NCBI GenBank assembly: GCA_041613315.1
Contig: JBFJHJ010000009.1
Span: 1-64,000, forward strand
Length of the DNA: 64,000 nucleotides
Direction: 5' to 3'
Source: Gemmatimonadales bacterium
GTDB lineage: Bacteria > Gemmatimonadota > Gemmatimonadetes > Gemmatimonadales > GWC2-71-9
This document shows positions 42,837 to 62,094 of this stretch, in pieces. The first letter of the stretch is position 1; the number at the start of each line of letters is the position of its first letter. Made by a program: the position numbers and the translations under genes. The notes beneath the pieces were generated by a model that saw nothing but the letters and a program-made list of their open reading frames with translations, had not been told where the DNA came from and searched no databases.

Positions 42837-44057
42837 TCACCGCCGCACCCGCTGGAGGGTCAAGCCGTACTCCGCGTTGATCGCGTCGATGACGTGGTCC
42901 GCGACCAGTTGGTGCGTCGCGGCGCTGGGGTGGAACCCGTCCCGGCTGAAGAAGGTCCCGAACGGCGCCGTGACGCTGAGCGACGACGGTGGGACGTTCG
43001 GGAACAACGGGATTTGGCCGGCCTGCCGGAGCGAATCGAGGACCGGGTTGGGATCCAGATACGCCCAACCGTTGTCGGCGGCGGCGGCGGCGATCGTCTG
43101 GTTGTACGACGCGACCGCTCCACCGATCGTGAGCAGCTCGGCGCCCGTCAGGACGGGCGCGTCGTTCACGCAATCAAGCGTGACCGCCGCGCCGCCCGCC
43201 GCGGCCGCGAAGAGCACGCCGAAGCCGTAGCCGAAGGGCACGAGCGTCGTCTCCCCCACGCCGCCGAAGGCCGCGGGCGCGCAGTTGTTGCTCACCGCGA
43301 ACGTCGGCGGCCACCCGGGCGCCATGGACGCCTGCCAGTAGGCGGCTCCGGGGGAGAGGTGGGGAATACTGGTCACGTTGCCGACCCCGATCAGCACGGC
43401 GCCCTGGAGCGGCAGGGCCGCGAGCGCGTCGACCATCGCGTCATACCGGGTGGCGAAGACGTCGGTCGGCGTGACCAGGCCCACGTTACCGCTCAGCGCG
43501 GCTCCGAGGACGTCGTTGTTGCCGATCCATACCGTTGCGAACGTCGGGTCAACGGCCGCCGCGGCCTCGAGTTGCGTGCGGCCGCCCAGGAAGAACGTCG
43601 TTAAGGCATTGGCGCCGCTCGCAGGATCCAAGTTGTTCAGCACGTCGATCACGGCGGCGCCCGGTACGGCGACGTTATTGAGAAACGTGGGCACGGGCGC
43701 CTTGCGGAGGGCGCAAGGCGGGGCGGCGGCACCGCCCACGCGCTCCAGTGTGAAGATGTTCACGATCGGTGGCGGGCATCCGGGTGCGCTCAACAGCGGG
43801 ACGTTGAACTCCGATCCGAGGCTCAGGCCGAAGGCGCCGGCCAGGAACACCGGGTAGGCCTGAAGCTGTGTGCTGTCGTTGATCCCGCCGGACTGGAACC
43901 CGGCCGTGATGCTGTTGCCGATCGCGACGTAGCGGACGAACATGTCGTTCGTGGCGGTGGGCGGCGTGAGCTCGTCGTTGCTGCACGCCCCGAGCAGTGG
44001 GATGGCGGCGGCGAGGCACAGGAGAAGCGCTCGGCTCCGTATCGGGCGACGCGTCAT
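42837..44057 (-). CDS. SGNH/GDSL lipase-like lipoprotein
   Basis: Lipobox LLGAC; GNSITAG, NVAVPG, IGNND, DGFHP; RBS GAGGA before ATG 44057. Confidence 0.88.
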   Translation of the reverse strand: MTRRPIRSRALLLCLAAAIPLLGACSNDELTPPTATNDMFVRYVAIGNSITAGFQSGGINDSTQLQAYPVFLAGAFGLSLGSEFNVPLLSAPGCPPPIVNIFTLERVGGAAAPPCALRKAPVPTFLNNVAVPGAAVIDVLNNLDPASGANALTTFFLGGRTQLEAAAAVDPTFATVWIGNNDVLGAALSGNVGLVTPTDVFATRYDAMVDALAALPLQGAVLIGVGNVTSIPHLSPGAAYWQASMAPGWPPTFAVSNNCAPAAFGGVGETTLVPFGYGFGVLFAAAAGGAAVTLDCVNDAPVLTGAELLTIGGAVASYNQTIAAAAADNGWAYLDPNPVLDSLRQAGQIPLFPNVPPSSLSVTAPFGTFFSRDGFHPSAATHQLVADHVIDAINAEYGLTLQRVRR

Positions 44058-44092
44058 GGCGCGATCCTCAATCGGTCGGTTCGTCGTGCGCA

Positions 44093-45484
44093 TTAGAAGT
44101 GCACGGTGAGCGTGGCGCCCACGAGGTTGGCGTTGAACGAGTAGAGACCGCTGTTGAGGGCCGTCGTCGGCAACTGGCCCGGGAGCGGGTCCCGGACCCG
44201 CCCGCGGCGCTTGTCCTGCCGGATGTATTGATACGCCACGTCGATCGAGAACCGGGGGCTCACGGCGAGGCCGACGCCGCCGGTGAACTCGTTGCGCGCC
44301 GACTCGGGCAGCAGCGGCGTGACCGTCTGGTCCGGCGCCGCCGCCTGATGGTAGAGGTACCCCCCGCGCAACGTCCACCGGTCGTCCGCCGCCCAATCGA
44401 ACCCGACTCGGAACCCCCATGTGTCCTCGTAGTCTTCCCGGATGACCCGGTCCGGTGTCAGTTGATTGGCGAAGTCGATCGTGATCGCTTCGAACACGGA
44501 CCAGTTCATCCACTGCGCGTCGGCCAGGAGCATGAGCGCCGGCGTCGCGTTGACCGCGATCCCCACCTGGAGCTGATCCGGCATCGTGATGCTGGTCGTG
44601 GCGGTGCCGTTTGCGAGCGCGGTGAAGACGCCCGCGCCCTGGAGCACCTGGTCGAGCGTCGTGCCGGCCGGAGCCCCGAACGGGTTGCCGGCCGGTAACA
44701 CGATGCCGGTGGCCACCGCCGCAAACGTGGCGTCGCCCTCATAGTCCAGCGTGACGCGGGTGAGGTAGCGGGCTCCGAGGCTGAAGCGCTCGTTGGGCGT
44801 GAGCAGCACGCCGAAGTGTCCCCCGAAGCCCGTCGCGCCCGTGGCCTTGAGCCGGGCGTTCGCGAAGTCGGTATGGAACGGGATGCCCAGCTGGCCGAGC
44901 GTCGTCCCAAGTGGTGCCGGGGGTGGCGCCGGGAGCTCCCACGCGTCCAGCCGCTGGTTCAACTCGACCGACCCGATCACGATGTCGAAGCCCGCGCCCA
45001 CGGCGATCTTGGGATGTGGCTTCCACGACAGGGTCGGCTGGATGTAGAACGACTGCAGGTCGTTGTCATAGCCGCTGAAGCGCCCCTCGAACGTGGTCGG
45101 CCACCGGGTGCCGAGGCCGTAGGGCACGAAGAGGCCGACGCCCGCCGCCCATTGCGCGTTGATCCCATAAGTCGCGTACACGTGGGGGACGGGAATGAGG
45201 CTGTTGGTGAGGTCGGTGGTCTGACCCGTCAGATCGTCCGTGAAGTCGCCGAAGGCGTCGATCACAGTCAGGCCGGCGCTCACGGTCCAGCCCCCCATGC
45301 CCGCCAGGCCGGCGGGGTTGTACAGCACGGCCGAGCCGTCAGGGCACGGCGCGGCGGTCCCGGTGCCGGCGCGGCCCATCTGGCAGGTGCCGTGCTCGTT
45401 GACGGCAAAGCCCTGCGCGGCGATCGGGGGTGACGTGACGAAGAGCGCCGCGCTGGCGAGGCCCGCGCACAACGGAAGTCGCAT
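44093..45484 (-). CDS. OmpP1/FadL family outer-membrane transporter
   Basis: Signal peptide, MGRAG...YNPAG hatch motif, PYGLGT.W, terminal F. Confidence 0.9.
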   Translation of the reverse strand: MRLPLCAGLASAALFVTSPPIAAQGFAVNEHGTCQMGRAGTGTAAPCPDGSAVLYNPAGLAGMGGWTVSAGLTVIDAFGDFTDDLTGQTTDLTNSLIPVPHVYATYGINAQWAAGVGLFVPYGLGTRWPTTFEGRFSGYDNDLQSFYIQPTLSWKPHPKIAVGAGFDIVIGSVELNQRLDAWELPAPPPAPLGTTLGQLGIPFHTDFANARLKATGATGFGGHFGVLLTPNERFSLGARYLTRVTLDYEGDATFAAVATGIVLPAGNPFGAPAGTTLDQVLQGAGVFTALANGTATTSITMPDQLQVGIAVNATPALMLLADAQWMNWSVFEAITIDFANQLTPDRVIREDYEDTWGFRVGFDWAADDRWTLRGGYLYHQAAAPDQTVTPLLPESARNEFTGGVGLAVSPRFSIDVAYQYIRQDKRRGRVRDPLPGQLPTTALNSGLYSFNANLVGATLTVHF

Positions 45485-45518
45485 GTGATGCTCCGAGCGG
45501 TTGAGGTGCACGTGAGCG

Positions 45519-49434: not shown

Positions 49435-49518
49435 GCCCGGGTGGCGGAATGGGCAGACGCAAGGGACTTAAAATCCCTGGGGGGCAACCCCGTGCGGGTT
49501 CGACTCCCGCCCCGGGCA
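49435..49518 (+). tRNA. tRNA-Leu (anticodon TAA), CCA not encoded
   Basis: Acceptor GCCCGGG/CCCGGGC, anticodon arm AGGGA-CTTAAAA-TCCCT, long variable arm, GGTTCGACTCC T-loop. Confidence 0.96.
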
Positions 49519-49538
49519 CTGGGCGATTGGCCTCGCGG

Positions 49539-52904: not shown

Positions 52905-53840
52905 CTACGGGCCGTTGTGACGCCCCGGGTCGCCTTCGAGCAGTTCCAGCAGGTCTTTGGCGAAGAGCGACGTGAACTCGATCGCCATCTCGAAATGGTC
53001 TTCGAGGACGTCCAGAAACGGTTCGAGGTCGATGCGGAGCCCGACCACCGGTCCGTCGGCGACGGCGTCATACCACCGGAGTGCGGTGGCCAGCGTTTCG
53101 TGCATCCCGAGCGTCGTCGTCGGGCCGCCGCCAAAGGGGCGCGCCAGCTCGCCCGCCGAACACGAGACCGCGCCGCCCGCGATCAGCAAGAACCACGTGG
53201 CGGGCTCGTCGCGACGCCAGGCGGCCTCGCCCGCGGCGTAGCGCAGCTCCACGACGTGCCGCGCCAACTCCGACAGCGCGTCCACGCTGCTCGAGGGGAA
53301 CGCCGGCGCGCCGCGCAGCGCCAGAAGGCGCTCCACCAGGTTGAGCCGACGCTGGCCGGGCGGTAGCGTGCGCCCTTCCGCCGGTCCCAACCGCTGAGCC
53401 GTCGGCCGCCGCCTGAACTCCCCGAGCAGTCGTTCGGCGAGATAGCGCACGTACTGGAGCAGGATGGGGAAGTGCTGCTCGCAAATGTCGAGCTGCGCCT
53501 CCCAATCCAGCCGGAGCGCCAAGGTATCCGCGTCCGCCCGGGCCTCGATCCCGCGGGCCGCCTGGGCGAGCAGGTGGTGGAATCCCACGGCGTCTCCCGG
53601 TCCCGCCTCTTGCGCGCTCCGGCCGAGTCGCGTGACCGTGACCCGCCCATCGATCACGAGATAGAAGGCCTCCGCAGGCCATTCGGGTCGCAGCAGGTAG
53701 TTGCCGCGCGGGAAGAACTGTTCCTGCGCGTGCTGGGCGATCGTGCCGAGCTGGGTCGGTGTCAGCCGATCGAGCGCCGGCATCGTCCGGAAATGGAGGA
53801 TCCGGTCGAGGGGCCCCACAAAGACGGTGCGTTCAGGCAT
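52905..53840 (-). CDS. Tandem cyclic-nucleotide-binding domain protein
   Basis: Two cNMP-like repeats (FYLVIDGRV...GPGDAVG; FLLIAGGAV...TLG); no HTH; overlaps the upstream transporter gene. Confidence 0.8.
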   Translation of the reverse strand: MPERTVFVGPLDRILHFRTMPALDRLTPTQLGTIAQHAQEQFFPRGNYLLRPEWPAEAFYLVIDGRVTVTRLGRSAQEAGPGDAVGFHHLLAQAARGIEARADADTLALRLDWEAQLDICEQHFPILLQYVRYLAERLLGEFRRRPTAQRLGPAEGRTLPPGQRRLNLVERLLALRGAPAFPSSSVDALSELARHVVELRYAAGEAAWRRDEPATWFLLIAGGAVSCSAGELARPFGGGPTTTLGMHETLATALRWYDAVADGPVVGLRIDLEPFLDVLEDHFEMAIEFTSLFAKDLLELLEGDPGRHNGP

Positions 53841-56616
53841 CGAGCGCGCTCCCGAGAGGCGGGCCGCCGAGCGCGGTGGAGGCGAAGGCTAAGATCTCGG
53901 CGTGATCGTCGGAGAGCGCCAATCGACGGCGGAGGAGGGGCTCCATCCCATCCAACCCCAGCTCGGCAACGTGATATGCGGCCAGACTGCTGAGGGACTC
54001 GGTCGTGCTCCCGACGAGTTCCGCCAGCACCGTCTCGTACGCGTCGAGCTCGACGTCCTCGCCGCCCCGGAGCGCCGCGCCGCGTGGCTCGTAGAGATCG
54101 TCAATCAGCGTCAAGAGCGGTTCCCGCACGGGCGCGAACACCAGGTGTTCGAGTAGCTCGCGGCTGCTCGCCCGCGATTCGCGGCGTGGGCTGTTGAGCC
54201 CGCGATAAATGTGGAGGAAGTCCTCGTTGTCTGCCTCCAGATTGAGGAGGCGGAAGAGGCGCTCCAGGGCATGGTTTTGTTTGTCGCGCAGCAGGAGGAT
54301 CAGCAACTCGTACACGGCGGTGCGCCGTCCCGGGTGCGTCGTGGCACCGTGCTCCATCGCGTGGCGCCAGCGCATGAATCGGAACGCGACGGCCAGCGTC
54401 TGCTTGCTCGCCTGGGCCAGGAGTCCGGTATCGAGGGGCAAGGCGGGCTGCTCCTGTCGGAGACGGCCAAGGGACCGGAGGATCTTGAAGCGAATCATGC
54501 CGTCGGGCTCGTGGAGCAAGTGTTTCACGAGGAGATCGGCCGCGGCCACGGTCGCAAACGTGGCGATCGCGCGGGGCAGGTGCCGGCGGATGCCGTGCGA
54601 GAGGTTGTGATCCTTGAGCCCCGTGCCGAGCCGAGCGAGCGCGGTCGGCCCCAGCGCCGCTAACGTGGTGCGCGCCTCGTCGCGCAGGACGCGTTCCGCC
54701 AGCATGGTGACCAGGACCGGGATGAACGTGGGGCTCCGCACCTCGCGCATCGCGCGCACGGCCTCCAGCCGCACGTCGACTTCGCCACGGGCCGCGAGGG
54801 CACGGAGCGCGCCTTCGAAGACGGCCGCCGGCTGATGGCGCACGGCTTGGGCCAGCGCGAGGCGGGCCTCGGCGGAGCCCTCGCTGACGATGCGTTGCAG
54901 GGCGGCCTCCGCCTGCGCGCGGCCCAGCCAGCCGCCGGCGATGAGCCCTACCAGGGCCGTCGCCCGGACCTCCGCGGCGCGGTCGCGCAGGCCGCCGCGC
55001 AAGCGGCCTTCGTCGGGCGCGAGCACGGACTGGAGTCGCAGACTGCCGGCGCGTATCTGCGGGTTGGGATGGTTCAGGAGCCGATCTACGATCGGCAGGA
55101 CGTCGAGCCGTCCCGAGCGGATGAACAGCTCGAGCGCGTGTACGACGACCGGCGGCGAGGGGTGGTACAGAATGAGCGCCGGGATCACTCGCACTTTCCC
55201 CTGTGCGGTCAGCATGTCCAACGCTGCCATCACCTGACGGTCGTGGGGGGCGTTGAGCGTGCTGAGCAGGGTCTCGAGTGACGCGATGTCCAGCGCCGGG
55301 AACTCGATCCGGGTCTCGGTGATCTCCTCACTCAGCGTCTCGCGGAAGACGTCGAGATAGTGCGTCCGCAGATCGAGGGCGAAGAACAGCCATACCGCCG
55401 CGGTGAGCGAGGCCATCCCGGCAAACACGACCTCCCGGGTGGTGGCCGCGAGGGTGATCAAGATGAGCAACGACGCCAACGCCTGGCCGCCGCGCTGGCC
55501 GAGAACGTCGATGAACGCCTTCACGCGCGCGCGGAGCTCCGGCGCCATGGGCACGAAGAGCAGCTCGGTGCCCGTGCGGTGGAGCGAGTGCCGCAGGCTG
55601 CCGTCCACGCCTTTGAGGAGGAGCACCACCGCGAGGGTGCCCGCGATCACGAAGCCCACCGCGCCGAGGAGCAAGAGTGCCGGCGCGAATGCCACGGCGA
55701 TGTTCACGCCGAGGCGGCGGATCAACCACGCGACGATGAAGACCTGCACCCCCAGGGACAGCACGTTCAGCGTCAGATACACGCTCGCGAAGAATTCGCC
55801 CAGCTCGCCCGGCGCCACCAGCCGCGCCACGGTCATCTTGAACACGAAGTCCACGAGCGTGAACGTCACCGTCGCCAGGAGGACGAGGATCGCCACGCGG
55901 CGCAGGTACGGCCGAGACCAGACGATCTGTCCCACACGGGTCACGTCCCATCTCACCGCGGTGGTCGCACCGGGTTCGGCGGACGGGCCGCCGCTCAAGA
56001 GCCGCGGGCCCCACGACGCCACGAGGAACACGGCGGCGGCGGCGAGCACCACGTACTGCGCCGCAACCAGGCCGGTGAGGAGCCGCGCGATCGCGGAGCC
56101 GACGATCGCCCCCATCACGCTCCCCGACCCGATCACCGCAAAGACCCGCTTGGCTTGCGTCAGCGTGAAGAGACTGCCCAGGACGGTCCAAAAGCGCACC
56201 ACCACCAGCGTCGCGAGCACGCCCGACCAGGTGTAGAGCGCATAGAACACCCAGTCGCCCGCCCAGCCCACGAGCAGCCAGAAGCCGAACGTGATCACCG
56301 CCGACACGATGAGCCAGGCGCTGAGCTCGTGGCGATGCGCGAAGCGCCGCAGGATACGTGGTTGCCGCTCGGTGAGCGCGAGCGCCACGACGGCGATGGC
56401 GAGATAGACCCAGGGGAGTTGCGACGCCGGGAGCCTCGCGAGAAAGAGTGCGTCGCGGGCCGTCTCGAGCAGGGCGTGCCCGGCCATGAACCCGAACAGC
56501 GTGAGAAACGCCCCGAGGGCGTCTCGCCGCTCATCAGGGCGGATCCGGGCGACCGACCCCAAGATCCGTGCCGAGAGCATGTTGACGACGACCGAGTTTC
56601 TTGCCCTGGCGGTCAC
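53833..56616 (-). CDS. NTT/TLC (Npt1/Npt2-like) MFS transporter fused to HEAT repeats
   Basis: LETARDALFL, FW...AKRVFAVIG.G, SLRHSLHR..ELLFVP, KAFID...RGG, about 12 TMs, then HEAT-like helices; start may be 56580. Confidence 0.85.
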   Translation of the reverse strand: MTARARNSVVVNMLSARILGSVARIRPDERRDALGAFLTLFGFMAGHALLETARDALFLARLPASQLPWVYLAIAVVALALTERQPRILRRFAHRHELSAWLIVSAVITFGFWLLVGWAGDWVFYALYTWSGVLATLVVVRFWTVLGSLFTLTQAKRVFAVIGSGSVMGAIVGSAIARLLTGLVAAQYVVLAAAAVFLVASWGPRLLSGGPSAEPGATTAVRWDVTRVGQIVWSRPYLRRVAILVLLATVTFTLVDFVFKMTVARLVAPGELGEFFASVYLTLNVLSLGVQVFIVAWLIRRLGVNIAVAFAPALLLLGAVGFVIAGTLAVVLLLKGVDGSLRHSLHRTGTELLFVPMAPELRARVKAFIDVLGQRGGQALASLLILITLAATTREVVFAGMASLTAAVWLFFALDLRTHYLDVFRETLSEEITETRIEFPALDIASLETLLSTLNAPHDRQVMAALDMLTAQGKVRVIPALILYHPSPPVVVHALELFIRSGRLDVLPIVDRLLNHPNPQIRAGSLRLQSVLAPDEGRLRGGLRDRAAEVRATALVGLIAGGWLGRAQAEAALQRIVSEGSAEARLALAQAVRHQPAAVFEGALRALAARGEVDVRLEAVRAMREVRSPTFIPVLVTMLAERVLRDEARTTLAALGPTALARLGTGLKDHNLSHGIRRHLPRAIATFATVAAADLLVKHLLHEPDGMIRFKILRSLGRLRQEQPALPLDTGLLAQASKQTLAVAFRFMRWRHAMEHGATTHPGRRTAVYELLILLLRDKQNHALERLFRLLNLEADNEDFLHIYRGLNSPRRESRASSRELLEHLVFAPVREPLLTLIDDLYEPRGAALRGGEDVELDAYETVLAELVGSTTESLSSLAAYHVAELGLDGMEPLLRRRLALSDDHAEILAFASTALGGPPLGSALDA

Positions 56617-56847
56617 GGGTTTCCTAACACGTTGGCGGACTTCACGTTATACTTCGTGGCGATCGTCTGATCGCGCTGGTCGCCCGGGCGGGCGCCAGGA
56701 GACACGTTCTTGCACTCTGACAAGATGCCGACCGGGCGGCGCGAAACTGTGATCTTTGCCGATACCTGGAAGTCCAGATTCCTTGTATGTTATCGCCAGA
56801 GGCCGTCCCGGTTTCAGGGGGGGCCCCTTTTTCGTTACGGACGACCA

Positions 56848-59781
56848 ATGCCACGTTTGCTCACGACTGCCTGGGTGGTACTCCTGCTGGCGGCCCCTGC
56901 CATCCGCGCCGCGGCCCAGAGCTTCCCCCCGCCGCTCACCGACGCCGAGATCCGAGAGGTCACGAGCGCCATCGAGGCGATGAAGGCCGACGCCCGGGGG
57001 CCCTACCTCCGGATCCGGTGGTTCTGCAATGACGGGAGCGTCGAGCCCCCCCAGGGCACCCCCTGCCGCGAGCGGGGTGGTGGCGTGCAGTACGCCGAGT
57101 TCAACGAGCGGGCCCGGCGTCTGGCCGAGCTCAATTTCCACGTGGGGACGATTCTCCAGGCCGTCACGTTCGAGGACCTCTTCGACTCGGCGCAGGCCCA
57201 CTATCGCCTGCGCGAGCTCATAGTCGCGAAGTACCTGTTCGACGTGGACGACGGCTGGGCGCTCCGCCAGGCACAATTCTATCGCGGCGCCCGGCAGATC
57301 GAAGACGAAGAGCGGACGGGGCACGCGCTGCTGGAAGGGCTGCTCGGGCGGCCCGAGTGGACCGCCGCGCACTATCTGTTGGCCGTCCGGCTCGTGGCCA
57401 CGATCCCGCACGTGACACTGGGCGGTGACCAGCTCACGTACCGTATTCGGAATCTGGCGACGGAAGCCGCCGAGCTCGACCAGAGCTTCCTGCCAGTGCG
57501 GGTCAAGATCCACTCGTTCCCCTCGCGCGAGGACCTCGAGGCGGTCGAGCGGCATCTCGCCTCCGTGACGGCGCCGGCGGTGCGCGCGAAGCTCACCGAG
57601 TTGCGCGACGAGCTCCGCCGGCAGTACGACCCGCGGCGCAATCTCGAGAGCCTGGCCCAGTACCGGCGGCGGCTGCGGGGTACGCTGGGAGACGAACTGG
57701 CGGCGCTCGAGCGGAGCTTCGCGCAGGGGGACCAGCGGGGTGCGTTCGCGCAGATCGCCGGGCTGGCGCCGAAGATCCGCCAGCTCGTGACCACGGGCCG
57801 CGACGGCCGCGTCAACCTCGTGCTGATGGATCTGGGCCTTGCGCTGCAGGAGCAAGCGTTCCTGCTCGCGCAGGACCTCGTGCGCGAGCCGGGGCCGACG
57901 AGTCGCAGCGAACGCCTGCGGCGGCTCTCGGACTACCTCGCCATCGCCCACGGCGCCGGGTTCCTGTCGGCCCGCGAACGTGACGCGCTGGACCGCGAAA
58001 TCGCGCGGCTGCGGACGGAGGTGCCGCCAACGGCCCTCGAGTACAAGACCGCGCTCGGCTACCTCGGCCGGAGTCTCGACTGGTCGGCGGGGACGGTTCG
58101 GAGCTACTTCGGGCCGGTGATCCAGCGCTACCTGCCGGTGGCGCCCAAGGTCGTGGGATTCCCCGACGCCGTCATGCGCGGCTCGGTGCTGCTGCCCCTC
58201 TCCCAGGCGCTCGACGTCCTGGATACCGACGCCGATCGCGTGCTGGGTGCTTCCCACGAGATCTTCGGGCAGCGGGTCAGCCAGGGGGTCCGTGGACTCA
58301 ACCCTGGAGTCGTCCGCCGCCCGCTGGAGATCCTGGAGCCCGAGCGTGCGCACGCGGCGGTCGAGCCCACGAAAATCTACGTGGTGCCGGCAACGACGCC
58401 CGAGCTCAAACCCGTGGCCGGCGTGCTGACGCTCGATGCCGGCAACCTCCTGTCCCACGTGCAGCTGCTCGCCCGCAACCTCGGCATCCCAAATGCGTCC
58501 GTGTCGTCGTCGCTGCTGCCGGTCCTGCGCTCGGCCCGCGGCACCGAGGTGTTCTACGCCGTCTCGCCACTCGGCCGCGTTTTCCTCAAGCGGCCGGGGG
58601 AGATGACGCCGGAGGACGAAGGGTTGCTCGACGGCGGGCGCGACGTCAAGATCGAGAAGATCCGTCTCGACACCTCGCGGCTCCGGCTTGATCGGACGGC
58701 GCCGCTCCCGCTGTCGGAGCTTCGGGCGGACCTGTCCGGCGTGTACGTCGGGCCGAAGGCGGCGAATCTCGGGCAGCTCGCGGCGTACTTCCCGAGCCGC
58801 GTCTCGCGTGGCGTCGCGCTGCCCTTCGGGATGTTCGTCCGCCACGCGAACCGCCCCTTCGGGTCGGACCGGCCGATGCTCGAGGATTTGGAAGCGGCGT
58901 ACCGCCACGCGGCGGCGATGCGGGCGGCCGGGATGTCCGAGGAGGAGATCGATCGGTACATGTTCCGGGAGCTGGCCCGCGTGCGGAAGGCGATCCTCGA
59001 CCTGCCCTGGCTGCCCGACGTCCGTGACGCGGTCGTCGATGCGGTACGCGTGACGTTCGGTGGCGATCTCTCGGGCGGTGTGTTTGTGCGCAGCGACACC
59101 AATGTCGAGGACCTGCCGCAGTTTTCCGGCGCGGGGCTCAACCTCACCGTCCCCCACCAACGAACGCTCGAAGACGTGCTGGCGTCCATCAAGCGCGTGT
59201 GGACCTCGCCGTTCAGCGAGCGGGCGTATCTGTGGCGCAAGCAGATTCTGGAGGAACAGGGGCGGATCTACCCGTCGGTGCTCCTGCTCGAGAGCGTCCC
59301 GTCGGAGAAGTCGGGCGTGATGATCACGTCGGGCCTCCAGTTCGGCGATTCGGACGATCTGACGATCGCCACCGCCGAAGGCGTGGGTGGCGCGGTGGAA
59401 GGCGAGGAGGCCGAGATGATCGTCGTCGACTCGGCGGGCACGGTGACGCTGCTGTCCCAGGCCAAGGCGCCGGTGCGGCGGGTGCTCGTGGACCGTGGGG
59501 TGGCGACGGTGGTGGGGCGGCTGCCGGACGTCCTGCTGCGCCAGGCGGACATCGCCACGCTGCGGGCGGTGGCGGCCGAATGGCAGGCGCGCTTCGCCCC
59601 GGGCGATGCGTCGCAAGTGTGGGACATCGAATTCGGGTTCGTCGGGGACACGCTATGGCTATTCCAGATTCGACCGTTCGTGCGGTTCCGGAGCAGCGCC
59701 CTCCTGACGCGGTTGCAGGTGCTGGATCGCGACGTCCTGGAGCGAGCGGACCGACGGGTCGCGCTGGTGGAGCGGATCTGA
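56848..59781 (+). CDS. Exported PEP-utilising dikinase-family protein (phospho-His domain + C-terminal PPDK-type ATP-grasp)
   Basis: Signal peptide MPRLLTTAWVVLLLAAPAIRAAA|Q; LLSHVQLLARN; GPKAANL; VRSDTNVEDLPQFSGAGL; WDIEF; FQIRP. Confidence 0.85.
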   Translation: MPRLLTTAWVVLLLAAPAIRAAAQSFPPPLTDAEIREVTSAIEAMKADARGPYLRIRWFCNDGSVEPPQGTPCRERGGGVQYAEFNERARRLAELNFHVGTILQAVTFEDLFDSAQAHYRLRELIVAKYLFDVDDGWALRQAQFYRGARQIEDEERTGHALLEGLLGRPEWTAAHYLLAVRLVATIPHVTLGGDQLTYRIRNLATEAAELDQSFLPVRVKIHSFPSREDLEAVERHLASVTAPAVRAKLTELRDELRRQYDPRRNLESLAQYRRRLRGTLGDELAALERSFAQGDQRGAFAQIAGLAPKIRQLVTTGRDGRVNLVLMDLGLALQEQAFLLAQDLVREPGPTSRSERLRRLSDYLAIAHGAGFLSARERDALDREIARLRTEVPPTALEYKTALGYLGRSLDWSAGTVRSYFGPVIQRYLPVAPKVVGFPDAVMRGSVLLPLSQALDVLDTDADRVLGASHEIFGQRVSQGVRGLNPGVVRRPLEILEPERAHAAVEPTKIYVVPATTPELKPVAGVLTLDAGNLLSHVQLLARNLGIPNASVSSSLLPVLRSARGTEVFYAVSPLGRVFLKRPGEMTPEDEGLLDGGRDVKIEKIRLDTSRLRLDRTAPLPLSELRADLSGVYVGPKAANLGQLAAYFPSRVSRGVALPFGMFVRHANRPFGSDRPMLEDLEAAYRHAAAMRAAGMSEEEIDRYMFRELARVRKAILDLPWLPDVRDAVVDAVRVTFGGDLSGGVFVRSDTNVEDLPQFSGAGLNLTVPHQRTLEDVLASIKRVWTSPFSERAYLWRKQILEEQGRIYPSVLLLESVPSEKSGVMITSGLQFGDSDDLTIATAEGVGGAVEGEEAEMIVVDSAGTVTLLSQAKAPVRRVLVDRGVATVVGRLPDVLLRQADIATLRAVAAEWQARFAPGDASQVWDIEFGFVGDTLWLFQIRPFVRFRSSALLTRLQVLDRDVLERADRRVALVERI

Positions 59782-61073
59782 TGATGGCCTCCCGCGGGAC
59801 GCGCTGGCTCGCGTGTGCGCTGCTCGGGCTCGTGGCCGTGGGCGCCGCCCCGTCGGGGCCGTATCCGTTGGACGGGTACGAGCACACCGGCATCCGCCGG
59901 CTCGAAGCGTTCCGTCTCATGCGGGCCGGACAGATCCGGGGATCGCTGCGGCTCCCCCCCGGAGCGTTGCTGCCCTCGGAGGCGATCCGGCTGCGCATGG
60001 CGGGCTTCGATGAGACCTTCGATATTCTGCCGGACACGCCCAAGGACCCGGAGCTCCAGGCGGCGCTGCTCAGCATCGTGGCCGCGCGGGATACCTCCTA
60101 CCGGGTGGCCCTGCTCGACATCACCGACCCGGCACAGCCGCGGTACGCCGCGGTCCGGGAGAGCGAGGGCTACATCCCCGGCAGCGTCGGGAAGCTCTTG
60201 GTGATGACTGGATTGTTCCACGAGTTGGCCAAGCGTTTCCCCTCGGACATCGCCGCACGGGCGCGGTTGCTCCGCGACACGCGGATCGTGGCGGACCGGT
60301 GGGTGCTGCCCAACAGCCATCAGATCCCGGTCGTGAACGAGGACATGACCGCGGTGACCTACCGCGCCGTGCGCGTTGGGGACGAGTTCACCCTGTGGGA
60401 ATGGGTCGACCACATGATCTCGCCCAGCTCCAACGCCGCCGGTTCGCTGGTGTGGAAACAGGTCATGTTGATGGACGCGTTCGGTACCGCCTATCCACCG
60501 TCGGCGGCGGCGGAGGAGGCGTTTTTCCGCGATACGCGGAAGCCGGAGCTGACCGCCCGGTCCCTTCGGGTCCTGGAGGATCCGCTCCTCGCGCTCGGAC
60601 TCGACACGGCGCAGCTCCGTCTAGGCACGTTCTTCACGCGCACGGCGTCCCGCATCGTTCCCGGCCAGGCGAGCTCGTCGACGCCCCGCGAGCTGGTCCG
60701 CTGGCTCTTGAAGCTGGAGCAGGGGAAGGTCGTGGACCGGTGGAGCAGTCTCGAGATGAAGAGGCTCATGTACTTCACGCGGCGCCGGTACCGCTACGCC
60801 TCATCGCCTGCCCTGGCGGACGCCGCCGTATACTTCAAGTCGGGCTCCCTGTACCAATGCCGCCCGGAGCCCGATTATCAATGCGGGCAATACCGGGGCA
60901 ACGCTACGAACCTCATGCACTCGGTGGCGATCGTCGAGTCACCGGCGTCCGGCGACCGCCAGCGCGTGTATCTGATCTCGATGATGTCGAACGTGCTCAA
61001 GGTGAACTCCGCGGCAGAGCACCTGGAGATCGCGACGCAGATCGAACAGCTGCTCCAGCGGCTGCACCCGTGA
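59781..61073 (+). CDS. Exported serine hydrolase, class A beta-lactamase/PBP fold
   Basis: Signal peptide; SVGK, SSN, KSG; start overlaps the dikinase stop. Confidence 0.85.
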   Translation: MMASRGTRWLACALLGLVAVGAAPSGPYPLDGYEHTGIRRLEAFRLMRAGQIRGSLRLPPGALLPSEAIRLRMAGFDETFDILPDTPKDPELQAALLSIVAARDTSYRVALLDITDPAQPRYAAVRESEGYIPGSVGKLLVMTGLFHELAKRFPSDIAARARLLRDTRIVADRWVLPNSHQIPVVNEDMTAVTYRAVRVGDEFTLWEWVDHMISPSSNAAGSLVWKQVMLMDAFGTAYPPSAAAEEAFFRDTRKPELTARSLRVLEDPLLALGLDTAQLRLGTFFTRTASRIVPGQASSSTPRELVRWLLKLEQGKVVDRWSSLEMKRLMYFTRRRYRYASSPALADAAVYFKSGSLYQCRPEPDYQCGQYRGNATNLMHSVAIVESPASGDRQRVYLISMMSNVLKVNSAAEHLEIATQIEQLLQRLHP

Positions 61074-61116: not shown

Positions 61117-62094
61117 ATGAGAGGAGTAGACCGCCATATGATGCGATCGGTCGGTGGGCTGCTGATACTATCGGCGTGCGCCGGCGGCTTGATCGGGCTC
61201 CCGCCGGCCGGGCAGGTGGCCGCGCAGAGCGCGGCGAGCCCAACCCTCGTGCTCCCCGCGGCGGACCCGGTGTTGCAGGCGGAGCTCAACCGGGTGCTCG
61301 CCGAGCCGCCGTTCCGGAGCCTCATGGCCCGGAAGCGCCTGTCCGTGGCGCTCGTGGACCTGTCGGATTCGGGCGGGATCCGCTACGCGGCGGTGGACGA
61401 CAACCGCATGCGCTACGCCGCGAGCCTGCCGAAGATCGCCATCATGCTGGGCGTCTTCGACCAGATCGACCGGGGAAAACTCGAGTACACGCCGGAGCTG
61501 CGGGCCAAGATGGAGCTGATGATCCGGCGGTCGGACAACTACGTGTCTACGCAGCTCATTCAGCTGGTCGGGTTCCAGGCCATCGCGAACACGCTCCGGG
61601 ACCCGCGCTATCAGCTGTACGACCGGAGCCGCTCCGGCGGTCTGTGGGTTGGCCGCGACTACGGGGGCGGTCCCGGCCTGTGGCGCCGGGATCCGATCCA
61701 CAAGATCTCGCACGGCGCCACGGCCCGGCAGGTCGCGCGCTACTTCGTGATGCTCGATCAGGGGCGGCTGGTCAGTCCGTGGGCGTCGAGCGAGATGAAG
61801 AGCATCATGGCCCACCCCGAGATTCATCATAAGTTCGTGCTCGGGCTCGACAGCCGGCCCCCGTCGAACATCTTCCGCAAGTCGGGGACGTGGAAGAGCT
61901 GGCACGCCGACGCCGCCCTGGTGGAACGGGACGGCAAGCGCTACGTGGCCGTGGCGCTACTGGAAGCACCGGGCTCCGGGGGGGTGCTGTCGCGCCTCAT
62001 CGTGAGGCTCGATGACCTGATCCATGGGCCCTCGCCGGTGCCGATGGCACCGGCGAACGTGCCGACCGAGGAGCAGCAACCGCCGGCACAGTGA
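61117..62094 (+). CDS. Exported serine hydrolase, class A beta-lactamase/PBP fold
   Basis: Signal peptide; SLPK, SDN, KSG. Confidence 0.88.
   Translation: MRGVDRHMMRSVGGLLILSACAGGLIGLPPAGQVAAQSAASPTLVLPAADPVLQAELNRVLAEPPFRSLMARKRLSVALVDLSDSGGIRYAAVDDNRMRYAASLPKIAIMLGVFDQIDRGKLEYTPELRAKMELMIRRSDNYVSTQLIQLVGFQAIANTLRDPRYQLYDRSRSGGLWVGRDYGGGPGLWRRDPIHKISHGATARQVARYFVMLDQGRLVSPWASSEMKSIMAHPEIHHKFVLGLDSRPPSNIFRKSGTWKSWHADAALVERDGKRYVAVALLEAPGSGGVLSRLIVRLDDLIHGPSPVPMAPANVPTEEQQPPAQ

Follow-up and report, generated by a model that had tools for sequence, protein, structure and literature searches.

The dikinase gene and its neighbours

The window analysed here is a 64,000-nucleotide stretch of a Gemmatimonadales bacterium (contig JBFJHJ010000009.1, positions 1 to 64,000, forward strand), and it carries a four-gene module built around DK, the gene of a candidate exported dikinase. 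DK (56848..59781, + strand) reads from an ATG at 56848 to a TGA at 59781 without internal stops, and its product of 977 amino acids (aa) is predicted from the reading frame, profile matches and motifs to be a phosphohistidine dikinase with the domain order of plant GWD/PWD. The start of the following gene, B1 (59781..61073, +), overlaps the DK stop (TGATG). B1 encodes a leader-bearing SxxK enzyme of the Beta-lactamase2 family with the motifs SVGK, SSN and KSG and a Cys pair, and B2 (61117..62094, +) encodes a second leader-bearing Beta-lactamase2 enzyme (SLPK, SDN, KSG) that is paralogous to B1 (E 2e-12). Divergent from DK lies NTT (53833..56616, − strand), whose 927-aa product joins an NTT/TLC nucleotide translocase to HEAT repeats (Pfam TLC, 37.7 bits against a cut-off of 21; HEAT_2 also matched). 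The gene of a tandem cNMP-binding-domain (cNBD) protein (52905..53840, −) overlaps the NTT stop. A single sigma-70-like site upstream of DK, at 56624-56653, is a consensus match only.

The DK protein begins with a Sec/SPI-like leader (residues 1-23; 56848..56916, +), a hydrophobic stretch ending AAA-Q24, for which the sequence and family statistics predict cleavage before Q24. A conserved segment of the form GP-x4-WFCxDG...C...GGxQ, recognized in family alignments, follows at 56995..57096 (+) and holds Cys60 and Cys73. Next comes a presumed acceptor-binding domain (57097..58272, +), placed by conserved residues and a weak colinear match to the GWD central domain, and then a swivelling phospho-His domain with approximate boundaries (58273..58620, +; profile matches), in which His537 is encoded by CAC at 58456 within LLSHVQLLARN. 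The ATP-grasp stands last (58747..59685, +) and is identified by Pfam as PPDK_N over residues 634-946 (E 2.4e-23, above the cut-off). Residues 513-548 match PEP-utilizers at E 0.0014, which is under the Pfam cut-off for DK itself; the same family is matched at E<=1 by 48 of 49 DK family members. No pyruvate-binding TIM-barrel family was found by Pfam in DK or in the family alignment.

The first-pass annotation had read a signal peptide, an N-terminal Cys pair, an intact phospho-His motif, a C-terminal ATP-grasp and the lack of a PEP/pyruvate barrel from this gene, and each of these features is borne out by the domain matches and by the family. It overlooked the module around DK. H537 is invariant across all 147 aligned DK homologues (147/147), in which the ATP-grasp motifs GPK, RSDTNxED, GAGL, DxE and QxR are fully or almost fully conserved and the N-terminal domain has invariants of its own (W58, W137, R146, G147, Q150, E154 and H222). 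Conserved residues of the acceptor domain are W137, YRGxxQxEDE (145-154), R201, R218-xK[IL]H222, W412 and the pair D440/R444, with D440 kept in 33 and R444 in 46 of 49 diverse homologues.

The leader was scored with an in-house hydrophobicity rule, not SignalP. This rule detected a leader in 194 of 214 DK family members as compared with 124 of 2140 internal windows, and many of the members without one have truncated starts. With only plausible full-length starts retained, leaders were found in 241/254 DK homologues and in 0/46 leaderless GWD-type controls. Positive charge precedes the hydrophobic stretch in 234 of these 241 leaders, an AxA-like site is present in 182, and the mean net charge falls from +1.46 before the stretch to -0.46 after it. 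C60 and C73, each retained in 48 of 49 diverse homologues, likely form a disulfide. The Cys count is even in 205/254 mature DK homologues versus 24/46 controls. DK is very probably an exported and active dikinase.

Comparison with known dikinases

DK shares its ATP-grasp and phospho-His domains with PEP synthase, PPDK, RPH and PigC/RedH. However, PPDK_N follows His537 in DK, whereas in PEP synthase and PPDK it comes first, and DK has no TIM barrel; relative to RPH, with the ATP-grasp first and the His domain last, the domain order of DK is reversed. The NCBIfam models of PEP synthase, RPH, PigC and RedH match only the ATP-grasp of DK, far under their cut-offs (64.6 bits versus 739.75 for the PEP synthase model TIGR01418 and 45.7 versus 999 for the RPH model NF041857). 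RPH (PDB 5HV1/5FBS) is among the closest solved relatives of the DK ATP-grasp, and a PDB sequence search gave no RPH match for the acceptor domain. Database names of DK members are 'PEP/pyruvate-binding domain-containing protein' or 'phosphoenolpyruvate synthase', and the early warning that an automatic 'PEP synthase' label would be wrong proved correct for DK. DK-positive genomes often hold additional, different PPDK_N proteins. In genome G000 (82.9% complete), DK is the sole PPDK_N match, and a canonical PEP synthase or PPDK was not found.

Two variations on this architecture were observed. P0340 is a DK with a C-terminal META domain (PF03724) fused to it. P0363-P0365 are PPDK_N proteins that look secreted and carry domains of the cadherin, fibronectin-3 and phosphatase N-terminal type; they represent a second exported ATP-grasp family, in which a pattern search for the His motif gave none.

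The order of acceptor domain, His domain and C-terminal ATP-binding domain is shared by DK, GWD1 and PWD, and the Pfam matches uphold the GWD/PWD-like arrangement first proposed for DK, with the His domain ahead of the ATP-grasp. The SHV His helix is also common to them. In the available text of PMC13553574, StGWD1 consists of carbohydrate-binding modules (CBMs) and a helical central domain (PDB 9HA9/9QVI) together with His and ATP domains; E900, E901 and R904 are proposed catalytic helpers, of which E900 and R904 would help H992. D440 and R444 of DK lie at a similar distance from H537 as E900 and R904 of StGWD1 from its His. DK differs from GWD1/PWD in its Sec-type leader and Cys pair, in forming a separate clade, and in being encoded with SxxK enzymes. 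No CBM (CBM45-type, CBM20) was found among the Pfam matches of DK or of the family alignment. In addition, RSDxNxED stands before WxS..ERA in DK and after it in P0366 and P0367, two GWDs that carry PF23166. DK is not placed within GWD because it lacks a CBM and differs in its N-terminal motifs and in its ATP-grasp motif order (P0366/P0367).

The acceptor domain was compared with a set of two retrieved GWDs and 71 metagenome loci of GWD relatives. In hhalign, a profile of 147 DK acceptor domains aligned with one built from 52 central domains of GWD at E 0.0036, scoring 31.2 across 244 colinear columns as against 15.4 for the reversed profile; none of 40 block shuffles scored as high. In this alignment, RIR..KIH..P..D stands opposite RVR..KLH..TPDD and DLGL opposite DLAL, and D440/R444 fall on the E..R helix. 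Likewise, the DK profile scored against P0366 beats 500/500 shuffles, and for the divergent P0361, whose motifs are intermediate between DK and GWD, one of 300 shuffles was as high against P0366. Several results weigh against this relationship. Against Chara GWD, the DK profile was equalled by 13/500 shuffles; single-sequence hhalign reached only E 0.23-0.25; a GWD profile in HMMER failed to tell forward from reversed DK domains, with 2 forward and 3 reversed hits at >=5 bits on 149 of them; and the conserved N-terminal motifs of DK are unlike those of GWD. Searches of PDB sequences, run with profiles of the N-terminal region and of the full length, matched neither 9HA9 nor another GWD entry and, for the acceptor domain, brought up nothing but helical noise. 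GWD1_pHisD (PF22973) was matched by 8/49 DK members at E<=1 (best 0.0078), the DK of the window not being among them. The ESM Atlas gave, as leads only, one match at 0.84 for DK 25-470 and GWD/PWD (GWD1_pHisD) clusters at 0.88-0.89 for a DK homologue. On balance, homology of the DK acceptor domain to the GWD central domain is probable.

In a quick ATP-grasp tree (SH-aLRT), DK (98) and GWD (100) form separate clades apart from PEP synthase (98), and both arise from a fork that is not resolved and that also gives rise to other proteins of secreted appearance; long branches weaken the grouping, and the HMM filter dropped most PPDK rows. One of its rows, 'other_L176', is apparently a piece of DK from G154, the genome to which L029 belongs. 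Taken by itself, DK would count as a new form of GWD/PWD-type enzyme.

Other relatives of the GWD type were seen. P0361 and P0362 (1305 and 1456 aa) are divergent GWD-order dikinases whose N-termini resemble leaders and which have long additional N-terminal regions. P0366 and L098-L168, from metagenomes, include many intron-free leaderless GWD1-like proteins of about 1030-1190 aa; P0366 carries PF23166 and PF22973 and has 42% identity to Chara GWD. These proteins look like prokaryotic cytosolic GWD1 orthologues.

Distribution and co-retention of the module

DK matched 213 proteins among 8000 scored candidates, and 346 clusters (50% identity) reach E<=1e-30 against it. On GTDB contigs, at least 587 of 599 stretches matched by two patterns are DK relatives. 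Relative loci were found by a scan with the family alignment, whereas a scan with the single protein gave none. The locus set (n=81) comprises the best 80 of the at least 587 relatives together with the locus of the window. By their record names, these best 80 relatives come from Gemmatimonadota, Acidobacteriota, Bacteroidota, Desulfobacterota, Calditrichota, KSB1, Latescibacterota and, within the proteobacteria, Gamma-, Zeta- and Alphaproteobacteria. The module was found in cultured Arenibacter, Formosa and Flagellimonas. No plasmid match was found.

Within 6 kb of DK, B1 is present in 78/81 loci, B2 in 59/81 and NTT in 43/81; among the 42 loci with full flanks, the counts are 41, 34 and 24. 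Gene order and strand differ between loci. In 59 of the 78 loci with B1, its start falls -8 to +20 nt from the stop of DK. The module NTT is either a fusion of about 940 aa with HEAT repeats or a single-domain protein of about 425 aa. With approximately one NTT per 3.5-Mb genome, chance adjacency of DK and NTT is estimated at well below 1% per locus. B1 and B2 carry leaders in 40/42 and 57/59 proteins tested, respectively. The cNBD protein is beside the module in only 3/81 loci, all of the upstream-NTT type, and the only further recurring neighbour is an ABC-type cluster (7 loci). A recurring glycoside-hydrolase or TonB-receptor neighbour was not evident among cluster representatives, for which no Pfam scan was made. 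The surroundings of a further 16 NTT or module regions showed no exported consumer of ATP in common among the 18 of 150 called open reading frames (ORFs) that were scanned. PADLOC 2.0 assigned DK, B1, B2 and NTT to no defence family, and the cNBD gene gave only weak cNMP-domain matches.

Whole genomes were profiled as well. In the window's phylum (151 genomes), the four genomes with DK are also the four with B1; 68 genomes have an NTT homologue, a close orthologue being present in G105 and in G149. A second set comprised 201 Flavobacteriaceae-level genomes, the family of the Arenibacter genome G151 (L081). Here, DK, B2 and an orthologous NTT (E<1e-100) occur in exactly the same 46 genomes, and a distant NTT alone is found in 6 more. 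All three genes are duplicated in G314 and are retained, though scattered, in G276, G249 and G312, and the single TLC match in G151 is the module's own NTT. These counts come from related genomes that are not independent and do not amount to a formal test.

Variants and other features of the loci are as follows. Module variants in which the NTT is a tandem pair, or is surrounded by two copies of B2, are found in L047:11318-14917, L076:11573-14756, L049:4119-7566 and L050:5029-8485. The module genes of L025, L029, L032, L042, L052 and L079 are split by apparent frameshifts, probably assembly errors. P0356 and P0353 were considered as DK-B1 fusions (Rosetta-stone evidence) and rejected, as their junctions read as out-of-frame text. 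Convergent NTT gene pairs are found in L087:6708-12276, L088:1094-8726 and L093:7452-11223; those of L087 and L088 adjoin Ser/Thr protein kinases, with an Omp85 gene (L087) and a type I phosphodiesterase (L088) close by. Elsewhere in the window, inspection by eye suggests a tRNA-Leu-like sequence (~49440-49530) and, at 42837-45511 (−), an ORF for a FadL-like outer-membrane transporter with one for an SGNH-like lipoprotein after it.

Nucleotide supply, acceptor and competing explanations

The periplasm is usually treated as free of ATP, and the co-retention of DK with a specific NTT provides a possible answer to where an exported enzyme would obtain it. Plastid GWD also sits across a membrane from an NTT-type carrier, as DK would. 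The NTT of the window matches AtNTT1 (PDB 9J3J) at E 1.1e-6, and the FW..AN..T..EAK.F-like and SL...E..Y/F.P motifs of TLC ATP/ADP translocases align with it; the module NTT differs from them in belonging to free-living hosts and in being tied to an exported consumer. The available text of PMC5381601 describes NTTs of free-living bacteria without known function and the pairing of NTT-HEAT with cNBD; it treats NTT-HEAT(-cNBD) fusions as uncharacterised, gives them no function and names no dikinase or SxxK neighbours. Since the characterised NTTs serve uptake and NTT-HEAT is uncharacterised, outward transport is offered as a hypothesis. Judged from co-retention, it is fairly likely that NTT supplies the nucleotide used by DK.

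In the proposed mechanism, NTT would run outward, exporting ATP and taking back AMP/ADP, as the co-retention suggests. The ATP-grasp would put the beta-phosphate of ATP on His537 with release of AMP and Pi, in line with PPDK/GWD chemistry, and the phospho-His domain would swivel to the N-terminal domain, where D440/R444 may assist transfer to a hydroxyl acceptor. This acceptor would be an envelope glycan. Peptidoglycan or muropeptides (sugar C6-OH) are the best guess, because peptidoglycan alone among periplasmic substrates fits a glycan kinase and PBP-like enzymes alike. B1 and B2 would be DD-peptidase-like and would act on the modified wall by trimming or cleaving its stems. That the DK acceptor is derived from peptidoglycan is put at somewhat below even odds. 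The whole chain, in which NTT exports ATP and periplasmic DK phosphorylates an envelope glycan, most likely peptidoglycan, falls a little short of an even call. The wider statement that in many free-living Gram-negatives a dedicated outward NTT feeds a periplasmic GWD-related dikinase, which adds a hitherto undescribed phosphate to peptidoglycan or drives ATP-dependent cross-linking with B1 and has a PBP-like enzyme pair of its own, is put forward with somewhat less confidence than that. The PatA/PatB/Ape O-acetylation system likewise combines a membrane donor carrier, a periplasmic transferase and a periplasmic hydrolase, but its folds are unrelated to those of the module and its donor is acetyl, not phosphoryl.

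SxxK, SxN and KSG are found in 72/74, 51/74 (strict pattern) and 74/74 B1 proteins, with S and N invariant in alignment A7, and in 58/58, 51/58 and 58/58 B2 proteins. They share these motifs with PBP-A of Thermosynechococcus elongatus (PDB 2J7V/2J9O), the closest solved structure to B2 (E 0.005), and with class A beta-lactamases. PBP-A is a DD-carboxy/endopeptidase selective for amidated muropeptides (available text of PMC11189452). B1 differs from both in its large insertions and has no PDB match at E<=0.1. Unlike class A beta-lactamases, neither B1 nor B2 conserves Glu166, and both are encoded with a dikinase.

Several observations stand against the export of ATP to a wall-modifying dikinase. 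A dikinase yields AMP, whereas canonical NTTs exchange ADP. A neighbouring NTT is missing from 18 of 42 full-flank DK loci, G101 has only a distant, unlinked one, and G155 has no TLC match; NTT homologues are common without DK (68/151 genomes). One of the 80 DK records (L019) is labelled Acidimicrobiia, a monoderm group. The match of B2 to PBP-A is weak. Finally, the characterised NTTs all serve uptake, in parasites or organelles (available text of PMC5381601).

An alternative, unlikely in our estimate, is that DK forms part of an ATP-driven periplasmic ligase. DK would then phosphorylate a carboxylate, for example a stem-peptide C-terminus, and B1 would take the acyl phosphate as a Ser acyl-enzyme and pass it to an amine, giving cross-links or amides without a D-Ala-D-Ala donor, with B2 editing by hydrolysis. 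The translational coupling of DK and B1 (59/78) and their co-occurrence (4/4 genomes) fit such a role, as does the lack in B1 of a conserved acid in the stretch preceding the TP/E helix when set beside B2, where the invariant D192 lies within two residues of the position of PBP-A 158 and class A Glu166 (available text of PMC3394801). The register of D192 is ambiguous, however: one alignment places it on PBP-A 158, the other two residues away. The DK acceptor domain also resembles the glucan-side domain of GWD, and the characterised relatives GWD, RPH and BsPPS phosphorylate hydroxyls (available text of PMC13553574).

Periplasmic detoxification is quite unlikely. DK would phosphorylate antibiotics or phenolics in the manner of RPH or BsPPS, and B1/B2 would hydrolyse beta-lactams or esters. 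The kinship of its ATP-grasp to RPH, the Beta-lactamase2 assignment and the patchy distribution (4/151 and 46/201 genomes) suit this explanation, but the missing Glu at the Glu166 position, the lack of a plasmid match and an acceptor domain without an RPH match do not, and strict four-gene co-retention would be unusual for resistance genes.

About equally improbable is an inward NTT, with DK using ATP from lysed cells or hosts while NTT salvages AMP or other nucleotides. Known NTTs are importers, and NTT-HEAT-cNBD may be under cyclic-nucleotide regulation (available text of PMC5381601); no NTT was detected at some DK loci, nor in at least one whole genome. On the other side, tight co-retention with one NTT orthologue fits a dedicated supply, and environmental ATP is scarce. 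A variant in which DK runs in reverse to harvest energy is less likely still, as it would require a PEP-grade donor.

That DK is a periplasmic glucan, water dikinase acting on glucans that are periplasmic or imported, such as OPG, cyclic beta-glucan or maltodextrins, is decidedly improbable. It would agree with the GWD/PWD order, the weak central-domain homology, the tree grouping and, as a lead only, the Atlas GWD1_pHisD clusters. DK has no CBM, however; among five DK-positive genomes, some incomplete, MdoG occurs in none and Glycoamylase in two; sugar-utilisation neighbours were not evident among the cluster representatives; and B1/B2 would be left unexplained. A leader serving as membrane anchor, with DK facing the cytoplasm and periplasmic ATP unnecessary, is very improbable, for although the leader was scored by a simple rule only, the charge and AxA-like patterns, the conserved Cys pair and even-Cys bias, and the leaders of co-transcribed B1/B2 all speak for export.

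A literature search, which covered few subscription journals, found no paper on a secreted, periplasmic, exported or extracellular dikinase, on a bacterial GWD or on an NTT structure, and nothing relevant on an NTT or translocase paired with the module partners; one bioRxiv match proved to be an abbreviation in a figure legend. The novelty of the module as a whole depends on the proposed ATP export, and in it one particular NTT is tied to a consumer of ATP that is very probably exported. Short of proof, it hints that ATP is passed into the periplasm by some bacteria for modification of the cell envelope. The presence of the module in cultured species and in 46/201 genomes of one family makes periplasmic ATP and NTT function directly testable. 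If the proposal is true, the rule of a periplasm without ATP would be broken and free-living NTT-HEAT carriers would receive their first function; the module could in addition point to a cell-wall modification not seen before, and it has a bearing on how plant GWD/PWD arose.

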